Origin: Escherichia coli | GTDB taxonomy: Bacteria; Pseudomonadota; Gammaproteobacteria; Enterobacterales; Enterobacteriaceae | Reading direction: 5' to 3' (one strand) | Assembly (NCBI RefSeq): GCF_048403405.1 | Contig: NZ_CP183129.1 | DNA: 64,000 nt | In this document: piece after piece, positions 52,001-58,000 of the stretch | Position numbering within the stretch: the first letter of the stretch is position 1 | Layout of the letters: each line of letters opens with the position of its first letter | Position numbers: made by a program

Positions 52001-55000
52001 CGATGTTCATCACACTTTTGGTGCTACTTTGTTTTAACTTGCTGGGTGAAGGTTTTGAAGTGGCGTTACCTCGCGTAATCGATACGCTGATTGGTTGTGC
52101 CATTGCGTGGGCGGCGGTGAGCTACATCTGGCCTGACTGGAAGTTTCGCAATCTGCCGCGAATGCTCGAACGCGCCACAGAGGCCAACTGTCGGTATCTC
52201 GATGCCATACTGGAACAATACCATCAGGGGCGTGATAACCGTCTGGCGTATCGTATTGCCCGCCGCGATGCACACAACCGTGATGCTGAACTGGCGTCGG
52301 TGGTATCAAATATGTCCAGCGAACCGAACGTTACCCCGCAAATTCGCGAAGCCGCGTTTCGGTTGCTGTGCCTTAACCATACGTTTACCAGCTATATCTC
52401 AGCCCTCGGTGCTCACCGGGAGCAGTTAACTAATCCTGAAATTCTGGCGTTTCTTGATGACGCCGTTTGCTATGTTGATGACGCGCTACATCATCAACCT
52501 GCTGATGAAGAACGCGTCAATCAGGCATTAGCTGGCCTGAAACAGCGGATGCAGCAACTTGAACCTCGGGCAGACAGCAAAGAACCTCTGGTCGTACAAC
52601 AAGTTGGGTTATTGATTGCATTACTGCCAGAGATTGGTCGTCTGCAACGCCAGATTACTCAAGTTCCGCAGGAAACTCCTGTTTCGGCGTAAGAGAGTCA
52701 GCCCATTCTGCAAGCTCCTGGCGGCGTGCCACCGGGAGCGCAGCTTCATGAATGCCGATAATGGCCCCTTCAAGCATAAACAGAATCTTTTCTGTCACCA
52801 GACTGTTTTGCTGCCGCAGTCGCAACCAACACATTTTTGCCCCAAGTATACGTAACGCCCGTACATCCTTAATCCCCACCTCCCCGAGAATCGCTTCCAG
52901 ATGAAAAGACATATTGGGCAAATCTTTCAGTCTTTCCCGGGTATTGCGCGTGCTTTTCTCTTTCAGCGCTGCATCGAGAGAATATTTCGACAGACGCACC
53001 AGCTTCAGTTGATTTCGCCATAGACTTTCATCAACCCGATAGTAATTGAGGGTAACGGATCGGCCACACTTTTTATATGTCAGCCAGACAGGCGGATGTT
53101 TTACACAGTACTGTGCACTTTGCTCACAAGCCCGAAGATACAACTCACCATCAGAAACCATCGCAAACACCGTGTCGTCAACGGTCAGGCTGTAACTGCC
53201 AAACAATGATCGGTATTCAATTGTGCCCAACGTTGCCAGGTATTCTTGTGATTTATAGATCCGCTTATAGGAGAGGCTTTTCATAAAATTCCTTTTAAAA
53301 TCATAACATAAAAGAATGATTCACATTAACGGATCCGTTAACTACGAAAATAGGCAACTTATTCTTAAGGGGCAAGATTAATTTATGTTTTCCCGTCACC
53401 AACGACAAAATTTGCGAGGCTCTTTCCGAAAATAGGGTTGATCTTTGTCGTCACTGGATGTACTGTACATCCATACAGTAACTCACAGGGGCTGGATTGA
53501 TTATGTACACTTCAGGCTATGCACATCGTTCTTCGTCGTTCTCATCCGCAGCAAGTAAAATTGCGCGTGTCTCTACGGAAAACACTACAGCCGGGCTTAT
53601 CAGTGAAGTTGTCTATCGCGAAGATCAGCCCATGATGACGCAACTTCTACTGTTGCCATTGTTACAGCAACTCGGTCAGCAATCGCGCTGGCAACTCTGG
53701 TTAACACCGCAACAAAAACTGAGTCGGGAATGGGTTCAGGCATCTGGGCTACCCTTAACGAAAGTGATGCAGATTAGCCAGCTCTCCCCTTGCCACACCG
53801 TGGAGTCAATGGTTCGCGCTTTACGCACGGGCAATTACAGTGTGGTGATCGGTTGGTTGGCAGATGATTTGACTGAAGAAGAGCATGCTGAACTTGTTGA
53901 TGCGGCAAATGAAGGTAACGCTATGGGGTTTATTATGCGTCCGGTAAGCGCATCCTCTCACGCAACGAGACAACTTTCCGGGCTAAAAATTCACTCTAAT
54001 TTGTATCATTAAGTAAATTTAGGATTAATCCTGGAACTTTTTTTGTCGCCCAGCCAATGCTTTCAGTCGTGACTAATTTTCCTTGCGGAGGCTTGTCTGA
54101 AGCGGTTTCCGCGATTTTCTTCTGTAAATTGTCGCTGACAAAAAAGATTAAACGTACCTTATACAAGACTTTTTTTTCATATGCCTGACGGAGTTCACAC
54201 TTGTAAGTTTTCAACTACGTTGTAGACTTTACATCGCCAGGGGTGCTCGGCATAAGCCGAAGATATCGGTAGAGTTAATATTGAGCAGATCCCCCGGTGA
54301 AGGATTTAACCGTGTTATCTCGTTGGAGATATTCATGGCGTATTTTGGATGATAACGAGGCGCAAAAAATGAAAAAGACAGCTATCGCGATTGCAGTGGC
54401 ACTGGCTGGTTTCGCTACCGTAGCGCAGGCCGCTCCGAAAGATAACACCTGGTACACTGGTGCTAAACTGGGCTGGTCCCAGTACCATGACACTGGTTTT
54501 ATTCCTAACAATGGTCCGACCCACGAAAACCAACTGGGTGCAGGTGCTTTTGGTGGTTACCAGGTTAACCCGTATGTTGGCTTTGAAATGGGTTACGACT
54601 GGTTAGGTCGTATGCCGTACAAAGGCGACAACATCAACGGCGCATACAAAGCTCAGGGCGTTCAGCTGACCGCTAAACTGGGTTACCCAATCACTGACGA
54701 TCTGGACATCTACACTCGTCTGGGTGGTATGGTATGGCGTGCAGACACCAAGGCTAACGTACCTGGTGGCGCATCTTTTAAAGACCACGATACCGGCGTT
54801 TCTCCGGTCTTCGCTGGCGGTGTTGAGTATGCGATCACTCCTGAAATCGCTACCCGTCTGGAATACCAGTGGACCAACAACATCGGTGACGCACACACCA
54901 TCGGTACTCGTCCGGACAACGGCATGCTGAGCCTGGGTGTTTCCTACCGTTTCGGTCAGGGCGAAGCAGCTCCAGTAGTTGCTCCGGCTCCAGCTCCGGC

Positions 55001-58000
55001 ACCGGAAGTACAGACCAAGCACTTCACTCTGAAGTCTGACGTTCTGTTCACCTTCAACAAAGCAACCCTGAAACCGGAAGGTCAGGCTGCTCTGGATCAG
55101 CTGTACAGCCAGCTGAGCAACCTGGATCCGAAAGACGGTTCCGTAGTTGTTCTGGGTTACACCGACCGCATCGGTTCTGACGCTTACAACCAGGGTCTGT
55201 CCGAGCGCCGTGCTCAGTCTGTTGTTGATTACCTGATCTCTAAAGGTATCCCGGCAGACAAAATCTCCGCACGTGGTATGGGCGAATCCAACCCGGTTAC
55301 TGGCAACACCTGTGACAACGTGAAACAGCGTGCTGCACTGATCGACTGCCTGGCTCCGGATCGTCGCGTAGAGATCGAAGTTAAAGGCATCAAAGACGTT
55401 GTAACTCAGCCGCAGGCTTAAGTTCTCGTCTGGTAAAAACCCCGCTGCTGCGGGGTTTTTTTTCGTCTATAGAAAATTGAACTGACTTTCGTCAGTTATT
55501 CCTTACCCAGCAATGCCTGCAGATCCTGCTTCAAAGAAGACATTTTATTCGCGTATTTCTCTTTGTTTTCCGCATCTTCAATCAGCTGAACAATCGTTTC
55601 AGAAAGCGTTTTACCGCGACGCTGCGCAAGACCAGCCAGACGTTGCCAGACAATAAATTCCAGATCGATCGATTTTTTGCGCGTATGCTGGTGTTCCGCA
55701 TTAAAATGGCGCTTCCGTCTGGCCCGAATGGTTTGCTTCATGCGATTGACCAGTTCCGGATTCATATGCTTGTCAATCCAGCCATTTACCAGCACGGGTT
55801 CATTTTCCAGCGAGAGCAACACATCGACGGCTTCCTGGGCGGCACTGGCTTCTATGTAACGGGTGATTAACTCCCCTTCGCGATGCTTCTTCACCAGATA
55901 CTTCCATTTCCAACCGCTTTCAAGATTTTCAAGTTGTTGATATTTCATAGCGATCTCAATGTTACCGTGTAACTCTTTACAGAATATCAGCTTTTTGGGC
56001 CAGTGAAGAAAAGAATCTCCATCCTGTGAGCTTTAACGCCCATGCCAGGAGTATTGTCGGTGCTTTCTACGTGTGCTGCAGTGCCGGTTACGGTATAATC
56101 GCGGCTTTGACAACAGACTAAAAAACATCAACTTTGACCATTACGAAACTTGCATGGCGTGACCTGGTTCCTGATACCGATAGCTATCAGGAAATATTTG
56201 CTCAGCCACATTTGATTGACGAAAACGATCCTTTATTCAGTGATACTCAACCGCGACTGCAATTTGCGCTGGAGCAGTTGCTGCATACGCGAGCATCCTC
56301 CTCTTTTATGCTGGCGAAGGCCCCGGAAGAGTCTGAGTATCTGAATCTTATTGCCGATGCCGCGCGTGCGCTACAAAGCGATGCAGGCCAACTGGTGGGC
56401 GGTCACTATGAGGTTTCCGGGCACACCATCCGCTTACGTAACGCAGTGAGTGCAGATGATAATTTTGCGACTTTAACGCAAGTTGTCGCTGCCGACTGGG
56501 TAGAAGCGGAACAACTCTTTGGCTGCCTGCGCCAGTTTAATGGCGACATTACCCTGCAGCCAGGTCTGGTGCATCAGGCAAATGGCGGTATTCTCATCAT
56601 CTCTTTGCGTACACTGCTGGCGCAACCTCTGCTGTGGATGCGGCTGAAAAATATCGTTAACCGCGAGCGTTTTGACTGGGTTGCGTTTGATGAGTCGCGC
56701 CCTCTCCCCGTCTCTGTGCCTTCGATGCCATTGAAGCTGAAAGTCATTCTGGTAGGCGAACGCGAATCATTGGCTGATTTCCAGGAGATGGAACCAGAGC
56801 TTTCAGAGCAGGCTATTTATAGCGAATTTGAAGATACTCTGCAGATTGTCGATGCGGAGTCAGTAAGCCAGTGGTGTCGCTGGGTAACATTGACCGCCAG
56901 ACATAATCACTTACCTGCACCGGGAGCGGATGCCTGGCCGGTGCTTATCCGCGAAGCAGCACGCTACACCGGTGAACAAGAAACACTTCCGCTTAGCCCG
57001 CAGTGGATCCTCCGCCAGTGTAAAGAGGTCGCCTCCCTGTGCGATGGCGACACCTTCTCCGGCGAGCAGCTAAACTTAATGCTACAGCAGCGTGAATGGC
57101 GCGAAGGTTTCCTCGCTGAACGCATGCAGGATGAGATTCTTCAGGAGCAAATCCTGATTGAAACCGAAGGCGAACGCATCGGGCAAATTAACGCCCTTTC
57201 GGTCATTGAATTTCCGGGTCATCCACGCGCTTTTGGCGAACCTTCTCGCATTAGCTGCGTTGTGCATATTGGCGATGGTGAATTCACCGACATCGAACGC
57301 AAAGCGGAGCTTGGCGGCAATATCCATGCGAAAGGGATGATGATCATGCAGGCGTTCCTGATGTCGGAACTACAGCTTGAGCAACAGATCCCCTTCTCAG
57401 CATCGCTGACATTTGAGCAGTCATACAGTGAAGTGGATGGCGATAGTGCCTCGATGGCTGAACTCTGCGCCCTGATAAGCGCCCTCGCCGATGTGCCGGT
57501 GAATCAGAGTATCGCTATCACAGGTTCAGTCGATCAGTTCGGTCGTGCCCAGCCGGTCGGTGGTTTAAATGAGAAAATCGAAGGCTTCTTTGCTATTTGC
57601 CAGCAACGTGAGTTAACCGGGAAACAAGGTGTCATTATCCCCACTGCTAACATTCGCCATTTAAGTCTTCACAGTGAACTGGTGAAAGCGGTAGAAGAAG
57701 GCAAATTCACCATCTGGGCAGTAGACGATGTAACTGACGCACTGCCGTTATTATTAAATCTGGTGTGGGATGGCGAAGGCCAAACGACGCTGATGCAAAC
57801 CATCCAGGAACGTATCGCGCAAGCATCGCAACAGGAAGGACGTCACCGTTTTCCATGGCCATTACGTTGGCTGAACTGGTTTATTCCGAACTGATCGGAC
57901 TTGTTCAGCGTACACGTGTTAGCTATCCTGCGTGCTTCAATAAAATAAGGCTTACAGAGAACATGGTAGATAAACGCGAATCCTATACAAAAGAAGACCT

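Follow-up and report, generated by a model that had tools for sequence, protein, structure and literature searches.

The ompA gene of Escherichia coli assembly GCF_048403405.1 (contig NZ_CP183129.1), which lies in the stretch of 64,000 nucleotides analysed here (the window), encodes a protein that departs from its K-12 counterpart mainly in the surface loops. This raises the question whether the loops of this strain have changed recently or whether the two proteins represent older forms of the gene, and which of the two is the departure. It is very probable that the locus is an ordinary chromosomal ompA of the isoform with a long loop 3, that its loops belong to an old haplotype of 294 bp and that the long form is the older one, the short form of K-12 being derived or imported. 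The gene is organised as follows:

54200..54368, + strand, upstream leader with the Shine-Dalgarno motif GAGG before the ATG (from the sequence)
54369..55421, + strand, ompA coding sequence, 350 codons and stop (RefSeq WP_000750418.1 for the 100% identical gene)
54369..54431, + strand, signal peptide, residues 1-21, identical to K-12 in the alignment
54435..54965, + strand, eight-stranded beta-barrel, residues 23-199 (Pfam OmpA_membrane PF01389, E = 1.2e-79)
54954..55004, + strand, Pro/Ala-rich hinge of 17 residues, identical to K-12 in the alignment
55044..55331, + strand, periplasmic OmpA-family (peptidoglycan-binding) domain, residues 226-321 (Pfam PF00691, E = 8.7e-24)
55435..55460, + strand, intrinsic terminator (GC-rich hairpin and T run) between ompA and matP, the two genes being convergent

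The true start is the ATG at 54369, and the GTG at 54297 is the start of the mechanically called reading frame. In strains 7/2 and GN02461 the identical gene carries the RefSeq annotation ompA (WP_000750418.1), and at least 1000 contigs carry the exact protein, under the record name 'MULTISPECIES: porin OmpA'. The Pfam matches give the two domains of an OmpA, an N-terminal barrel and a C-terminal peptidoglycan-binding domain, and residues 204-350 match PDB entries 2mqe and 4erh. As befits an orthologue, ompA lies between sulA and matP in the K-12 gene order sulA-ompA-matP-ycbZ, and residues 1-45, signal peptide included, are the same in both proteins. Cleavage is taken to occur after residue 21, as established for E. 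coli OmpA, and the barrel constructs in the PDB, which start at residue 21/22, agree with this end of the signal peptide. There are no differences from K-12 over 54200..54399, and the leader is presumably the long stabilising 5' UTR established for K-12 ompA. A scan for the sigma-70 consensus did not pick up the ompA promoter, which has no bearing on whether one is present, and an Rfam search of the window gave no match at ompA; its matches elsewhere in the window are one cspA thermoregulator and one tRNA.

Alignment with the OmpA of MG1655, retrieved from NC_000913.3, bears out the lengths of 350 and 346 residues given in the earlier note, and shows eight substitutions and four extra residues at 98% identity. 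From K-12 to the window the substitutions are N46P, S87D/V88N/E89I, S129A, Y132P, N to D at window residue 139, and N228T. All the loop strings quoted in that note occur in the window protein, and the tips of loops 1-3 hold seven of the eight substitutions together with the four-residue indel:

54504..54506, + strand, loop 1 variant codon P46 (mature P25; N in K-12), CCT against AAC, differing at all three nucleotides
54627..54635, + strand, loop 2 variant codons D87-N88-I89 (mature 66-68; SVE in K-12), from the alignment
54753..54785, + strand, loop 3 variant, the 11 residues 129-139 (SNVYGKN in K-12), from the alignment
55050..55052, + strand, T228 (mature T203; N in K-12), the only difference from K-12 outside the barrel

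The four extra codons of loop 3 align at 54768..54779 (GGCGCATCTTTT), the exact position of the gap being arbitrary. Loops were assigned by identity to PDB 9FZD and 1BXW and by published numbering, in which mature position 25 belongs to the mobile part of loop 1 and the position of D139 opens the next transmembrane strand (PMC5413513). A low-confidence AlphaFold2 model (alignment of 76 sequences, mean pLDDT 55.7, pTM 0.43), which was not relied on, places residues 46, 87-89 and 131-135 at the tips of the L1, L2 and L3 hairpins of an eight-stranded barrel. The claim that the differences are confined to surface loops is therefore good for the indel and for seven of the eight substitutions, D139 with the reservation that the literature gives it as a strand residue, and is slightly overstated because N228T is periplasmic, in the C-terminal domain. 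This substitution falls within the Pfam match at residues 226-321, so that this domain is, contrary to what had been supposed, not strictly unchanged. The position of T203 falls in the proposed dimerisation region (PMC5413513), and a T occupies it in 7 of 80 sequences of the cross-species set.

The coding differences are accompanied by many silent ones, and these are concentrated in one segment of the gene:

54498..54791, + strand, divergent haplotype block, codons 44-141, containing seven of the eight amino acid substitutions (N228T lies outside), the 12-nt indel and 14 of the gene's 19 synonymous differences to K-12

Within the block 30 of 282 aligned nucleotides are substituted relative to K-12 (10.6%), against 6 of 756 (0.8%) elsewhere in ompA (Fisher p = 1e-12); the flanks (3.3 kb) diverge by about 1%. 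Synonymous codon changes number 14 in 87 codons of the block and 5 in 251 elsewhere in the gene (Fisher p = 9e-6), corresponding to dS values of 0.346 and 0.027, which carry wide error because the block is short (94-98 codons). The block dS between window and K-12 is at about the level seen between E. coli and Salmonella, the window allele having a dS of 0.29-0.38 to the latter. Confinement of the synonymous divergence to a single block points to old allele classes rather than to recent mutations, and the loop differences would accordingly form one haplotype and not a set of changes made in the window strain. A block of 294 bp with so high a synonymous divergence, in a gene that is otherwise nearly the same, is a clean illustration of surface-loop haplotypes that have been long maintained or imported.

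The earlier note spoke of a 4-aa insertion. There is indeed a length difference in loop 3, but the outgroups show the long loop as the older state. The OmpAs of E. albertii, Citrobacter amalonaticus and C. sedlakii are 350 residues long, like that of the window, and have the same loop 2 (DNI) and loop 3; in C. freundii, Escherichia sp. E1V33 and S. enterica arizonae these two loops are near-identical to those of the window. E. albertii and Citrobacter have D or N in loop 1 where the window has P, Citrobacter has N in loop 4, and outside the block the ompA genes of these species differ from that of the window by 3-9% of nucleotides. A length of 346 residues occurs in none of 78 species-representative OmpAs, from a contig scan that required an exact conserved peptide and a set from which the representatives of E. 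fergusonii, the main S. enterica and S. bongori were absent. Since the long form is found in E. albertii, Citrobacter and Salmonella alike, what was called an insertion is most likely a deletion or replacement in the K-12-type allele, and the polarity of the original description would be wrong; the argument is one of parsimony, over species among which segments of ompA may themselves have been exchanged. The short form would then have arisen, or been imported, with a deletion of four codons and replaced loop tips, while the long form, which matches other Escherichia, Citrobacter and nearly Salmonella, would be the older and vertically consistent state.

Within E. coli the long form is anything but exceptional, long loop-3 DNA being present in 2062 of 5426 complete genomes (38%) and the K-12 type in 3223 (59%), which substantiates the suggestion that the variant is found in some E. 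coli lineages. Judged from the sequences compared, the window allele is common and ancestral-looking, and the loop block of K-12 appears as the outlier. A comparison anchored on K-12 makes such an allele seem a variant with an insertion. That the allele is not rare, that its long loop is the older and that one substitution is periplasmic had been overlooked in the earlier note. Little is new about the allele itself, and the useful correction, that of polarity, is conceptual.

Both classes may have been kept at high frequency in E. coli by long-term pressure from phages or immunity, as their pattern would suggest. It is possible, though rather doubtful, that the long and short blocks form a balanced polymorphism dating from about the time when Escherichia and Salmonella separated, and kept by frequency-dependent selection from phages and antibodies. 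Were this true, the K-12 reference would represent a divergent lineage without a sampled donor and not the norm of the species. Alternatively, the short block may have come in by a single old import from an unsampled relative. The K-12 block is 8.5-12.8% distant in nucleotides from every sequence compared, all other Escherichia included, and no donor for it was found among the 78 species representatives, the closest being 8.5% away.

The opposite direction of transfer, in which this E. coli lineage acquired the block of the window by recombination from Shigella, Citrobacter or E. albertii, with K-12 keeping the native E. coli form, is improbable. Mosaic local recombination is described for E. 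coli porin genes (bioRxiv 10.1101/2021.09.21.461324), and recombinant loop combinations such as D/DNI/SNVYGKN do occur (PMC5413513). In addition, the block of the window is slightly nearer to C. sedlakii and C. amalonaticus (4.8-5.1% of nucleotides) than is the rest of the gene (7.5-9.1%), which hints at either some exchange between species or stronger constraint. However, the distance to E. albertii is uniform along the gene (dS 0.113 for the block, 0.101 for the remainder) and that to Salmonella is about 0.3 in both parts, the pattern expected under vertical descent; it is the block of K-12 and not that of the window that stands apart from all other sequences, and both sequences titled 'Escherichia coli' in the species-representative scan encode 350 residues.

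Still less probable is the descent of the window allele from a K-12-like ancestor by point mutation and insertion in recent times, as an adaptation selected by phages or immunity. Such a reading would count every replacement as falling at an exposed loop tip, and ompA has been reported to be under positive selection in earlier work, as cited in bioRxiv 10.1101/2021.09.21.461324. Against it, the synonymous changes are concentrated in the block that also holds the replacements, three replaced codons differ from K-12 at all three bases, dN/dS across the block is only about 0.17, and the same loops recur in E. albertii, Citrobacter, S. flexneri and over a third of E. coli genomes. That the locus is a sequencing or assembly artefact, a pseudogene or a paralogue instead of a functional ompA is scarcely credible, with an intact reading frame, a leader identical to that of K-12, a terminator, the K-12 syntenic position, 100% identity in independent complete genomes and the same barrel sequence expressed and crystallised.

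The long-loop allele is already catalogued: it has a name, its frequency has been counted, its crystal structure is available, and it has served as antigen and as diagnostic target. Two isoforms of E. coli OmpA are distinguished by the length of loop 3, and PDB 9FZD shows the barrel of one of them with nanobody Nb39 (Commun Biol 2025, PMC12259851). This isoform is OmpA-long, a name from Bruehlmann-type nanobody work. Chain 9fzd_A is identical to residues 22-195 of the window protein, with the same loops 1-4, and as the construct is the barrel alone, the C-terminal T203 of the window lies outside its coverage; the long-type loop 3, ANVPGGASF(KD), is found at window residues 129-139. K-12 OmpA (P0A910; PDB 1BXW, 1QJP and 9FZC) is 'OmpA-short', pattern I alpha, and shares with the window protein the signal peptide, strands, hinge, C-terminal domain (bar N228T), leader and synteny, but differs in the eight substitutions and in a loop 3 shorter by four residues. 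In the typing scheme of Liao et al. the window has outer-loop pattern III, with P25, DNI66-68, a long loop 3 and H rather than N in loop 4 (window P46, D87-N88-I89 and H176), and C-terminal pattern beta, with A175, T203 and G251 in mature K-12 numbering (window A200, T228 and G276). Pattern III makes up 14.1% of their 78 isolates (PMC5413513), and the published strain lists intersect in only three of the 78 for III with beta. According to summaries of Power's work, the ompA2 class takes in patterns II and III (PMC9560509, PMC5413513), and its sequenced type strain B194 is of pattern II, with N in loop 4, where the window has the H of pattern III. The typing against known alleles that had been proposed as a check thus places the gene as OmpA-long, ompA2 class, pattern III with beta.

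The supposition that this loop 3 also occurs in Shigella is correct, since the OmpA of S. flexneri (HFW8222238.1), a secondary receptor of phage Sf6, has loops 1, 2 and 3 identical to those of the window. It differs in N155 of loop 4 (H176 in the window), L for M186, N203, L for I341 and one AP repeat fewer in the hinge, and because of differences such as N155 it is of pattern II and not III. The window itself is not Shigella, since its full 64 kb match E. coli GN02461 at 99.99% identity.

With loop 1-3 tips that differ from those of K-12, the protein would offer phages, colicins, antibodies and nanobodies another surface, both as epitope and as receptor, and the barrel core, the leader and the periplasmic functions would be untouched by the loop changes. 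Recognition of the window OmpA by phages, colicins and antibodies is predicted from the literature to be altered relative to K-12, and the proposed effect of loop variation on recognition is upheld by published nanobody, phage and antibody-probe work on these very variants. In studies of Sf6 the residues D66, N67 and P111 of S. flexneri OmpA, all present in the window, were mutated; D66 and N67 were among the loop substitutions picked to span infection phenotypes, and N155E is reported to be E. coli OmpA-like (bioRxiv 10.1101/509141). Sf6 infects about ten-fold less well through the OmpA of K-12 than through that of S. flexneri, whereas its affinity for the two barrels is similar (25 nM for K-12 and 36 nM for S. 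flexneri), which would imply that the receptor effect is not one of simple affinity (bioRxiv 10.1101/509141). Reduced phage lysis was associated with the ompA2 class (Power 2006, as summarised in PMC9560509), and it is probable that the recognition of a strain by OmpA-dependent phages and colicins can be predicted from its OmpA isoform. The nanobodies are isoform-specific, with Nb01 binding the short and Nb39 the long form (PMC12259851), and a 2026 study uses separate loop 3a and loop 3b peptides as antibody probes (PMC13108393). The isoform also predicts the recognising reagent, which for the window OmpA is Nb39 and not Nb01, and the loop 3b and not the loop 3a peptide.

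OmpA is encoded in the window by an intact and normally placed gene, with sulA upstream and a convergent matP followed by ycbZ downstream, the same arrangement as in K-12. The mechanical ORF list of the window holds a plus-strand frame ending at 55421, and translation from the ATG at 54369 yields a 350-residue OmpA. The gene is preceded by a Shine-Dalgarno sequence, and alignment of the leader shows zero differences from K-12 across 54200-54399. RefSeq lists the gene, at 100% identity, as ompA with product WP_000750418.1 in E. coli strains 7/2 and GN02461, and the exact 350-residue sequence occurs on at least 1000 contigs of the protein collection under the title "MULTISPECIES: porin OmpA [Enterobacteriaceae]". 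Over its full length the window matches E. coli GN02461, which was isolated from human blood, at 99.99% identity, and it is ordinary core chromosome extending from efeUOB to uup.

54369..55421 (+), ompA, with the OmpA_membrane barrel at residues 23-199 and the OmpA peptidoglycan-binding domain at residues 226-321 (Pfam)
54498..54791 (+), block A, a divergent 294-bp haplotype block covering codons 44-141
55435-55460, terminator hairpin 3' of ompA
55422..55495, ompA-matP intergenic region around the terminator, with 3 substitutions and a 3-nt gap in 74 bp relative to K-12 (4%; background about 1%)

The protein was aligned with the K-12 MG1655 OmpA of NC_000913.3 (346 residues), and the lengths and loop strings quoted in the earlier note were all recovered. 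Relative to K-12, and with mature positions in the published Pautsch-Schulz numbering, the differences are N46P (25) in loop 1, S87D, V88N and E89I (66-68) in loop 2, S129A, Y132P, four extra residues and N to D at window residue 139 (108-114) in the loop 3 region, and N228T (203) inside the Pfam C-terminal domain. Window D139 (position 114) is described as opening the following transmembrane strand, and T228 lies in a proposed dimerisation region (PMC5413513). Otherwise the window protein shares its barrel strands, hinge and periplasmic domain with K-12 OmpA. The claims that the changes are confined to surface loops and that the C-terminal domain is unchanged were thus slightly overstated, since one substitution in eight lies in the periplasm; most differences do fall at loops 1-3. 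A low-confidence AlphaFold2 model (pLDDT 55.7), with strands at 27-38, 54-65, 70-84, 90-107, 112-130, 136-155, 160-169 and 186-195, is indicative of variant residues at the tips of hairpins L1-L3. Stronger evidence for this placement is the identity of residues 22-195 to the crystallised chain 9fzd_A.

That structure, PDB 9FZD, is "OmpA-long" bound to nanobody Nb39; the allele has been described before under several names, crystallised and surveyed across tens of thousands of genomes. [quoted passage not shown] The window loops match pattern III of Liao et al. (2017), which includes P and DNI in loops 1-2 and H in loop 4 and was found in 14.1% of 78 isolates, with K-12 being pattern I (33.3%); A175/T203/G251 correspond to their C-terminal pattern beta (PMC5413513). 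As cited in that paper, the long-loop class was named ompA2 by Power et al. (2006), whose PCR survey of 524 isolates put its share at 43%, and pattern III was found in CFT073 and an O78 septicaemic strain by Gophna et al. (2004). The "loop 3b" peptide of a 2026 Nature paper is a 12-residue stretch of loop 3 (PMC13108393). A 69-nt window sequence across loop 3, which has no 28-mer in common with the K-12 allele, matched 2062 of 5426 complete E. coli genomes (38%), and the equivalent K-12 segment matched 3223 (59%) at a coverage of at least 80%; about 141 genomes (about 3%) have neither segment and carry other forms. Far from being rare, the window's class is thus one of the two forms common in E. 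coli. The suggestion of a Shigella form holds for loops 1-3, which are identical in S. flexneri HFW8222238.1 (348 residues, same protein cluster), and agrees with the literature, where S. flexneri OmpA is pattern II and variable regions 1-3 are common to UMNK88 and S. flexneri (bioRxiv 10.1101/2021.09.21.461324). The S. flexneri protein differs in having N for H in loop 4, L for M186, one AP repeat fewer, N203 and L for I341.

At the DNA level, a 3.9-kb alignment of the window with K-12 has 42 differing columns in the 300 bp at 54500-54800 and about 1% divergence elsewhere. The ompA codons show 8 non-synonymous, 4 indel and 19 synonymous differences, and three of the replaced codons share no base at any position with their K-12 counterparts (CCT/AAC, AAC/GTT and ATC/GAA).

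Divergence of ompA in block A and, after the semicolon, in the rest of the gene
Window vs K-12, nucleotide divergence: 10.6%; 0.8%
Window vs K-12, changed codons among same-amino-acid codons: 14/87; 5/251 (Fisher p = 9e-6)
Window vs K-12, NG86 dS: 0.346; 0.027
Window vs K-12, NG86 dN: 0.059; 0.002
Window vs E. albertii, dS: 0.113; 0.101
Window vs Salmonella, dS: 0.29-0.38; 0.29-0.31
K-12 vs E. albertii, dS: 0.275; 0.095
K-12 vs all sequences compared, nucleotide divergence: 8.5-12.8% (block A)

Recent selected point mutations are ruled out as the source of block A because the linked synonymous divergence is so large. Block A is an old haplotype that has been evolving separately. The distances of the window ompA from the outgroups are even along the gene, as would be expected from vertical descent, although the window block is somewhat nearer to two Citrobacter species than is the rest of the gene; the K-12 block is distant from everything compared, other E. 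coli and E. albertii included.

One degenerate-pattern scan of species-representative genomes returned 93 loci, some key outgroups being absent from them, of which 78 hold a full-length OmpA; neither the 346-residue length nor SNVYGKN occurs among these 78. E. albertii, C. amalonaticus and C. sedlakii have loop 2 (DNI) and loop 3 identical to the window OmpA; their loops 1 and 4 are one residue off OmpA-long. C. freundii has its own 11-residue loop 3, as long as that of the window, and loop 3 reads ANVPGGPSFKD in Escherichia sp. E1V33 and SNTPGGASYKD in S. enterica arizonae. By parsimony the long form is probably the older state and the reported "4-aa insertion" an artefact of the K-12 reference, a polarity to be read with the shortness of block A and the recombination of ompA segments in mind (recombinant loop combinations, PMC5413513; mosaic evolution, bioRxiv 10.1101/2021.09.21.461324). 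The K-12-type block would then carry a 4-codon deletion and replaced loop tips, and may derive from an ancient co-existing lineage or from import from an unsampled donor; that the loop block is an ancient balanced polymorphism is a tentative and rather doubtful idea. The ompA locus of Escherichia sp. MOD1-EC7003 (L063) encodes 351 residues with loop 3 AHNNVTGVSEKN, and its block differs from the window by 9.5% and from K-12 by 9.2%. This third deep class, which resembles Liao's pattern V present in some E. coli (PMC5413513), implies at least three old haplotypes. The present analysis adds that divergence is concentrated in a block where dS reaches the Salmonella level, and that outgroup comparisons make K-12 the outlier, both consistent with published "mosaic evolution" (bioRxiv 10.1101/2021.09.21.461324); no explicit statement that the long form is older was found in the literature.

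Expression and core functions, namely the tethering of the outer membrane to peptidoglycan and a small pore, would be as for K-12 OmpA, and what changes is presumably the exposed surface of loops 1-3. Loops 2 and 3 are the map positions of phage- and colicin-resistant ompA mutants. The isoform-exclusive nanobodies have all four loops in their interface and make extensive loop 3 contacts (PMC12259851). Reduced phage lysis is reported for ompA2 strains (PMC9560509), and Sf6 infection is ten-fold lower with K-12 OmpA than with the S. flexneri protein, a gap that binding affinity does not mirror (bioRxiv 10.1101/509141). Attachment and surface properties also depend on the ompA allele (PMC5413513). 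Given the identical loops 2-3, OmpA-long reagents such as Nb39 might cross-react with E. albertii, C. amalonaticus and C. sedlakii; no nanobody cross-reaction was seen in the 23 non-E. coli strains tested (PMC12259851).

Between the window and GN02461 there are 5 mismatches and one gap over 64 kb, and the gap is the probable reason for the frameshift annotated in torS of GN02461. In K-12, efeU is a frameshifted pseudogene; with its ORF in the window and the annotation of the matching genome, the EfeUOB iron uptake system probably works in the window strain. The YccE-family gene is likewise annotated as frameshifted in GN02461 and is therefore probably a pseudogene in this lineage.

27085..30036 (+), torS, an uninterrupted ORF
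about 1400..2240 (-), efeU, a 287-aa ORF; the matching genome's annotation has an intact permease gene
18234..19421 (-), YccE-family gene, an ORF of only 395 aa
31743..32165 (-), cspA thermoregulator Rfam match (157 bits) at the cspG cold-shock gene, ordinary in appearance
42710..42794 (+), tRNA gene between yccA and hyaA, tRNA-Ser in the matching genome's annotation, ordinary in appearance

Five plasmid-borne ompA matches were present in the collection. The 4668-bp plasmid-sized record NZ_CP097216.1 of E. coli BE311 holds a fragment that matches ompA nt 199-554 at 90.4% identity and is annotated 'outer membrane beta-barrel protein'.
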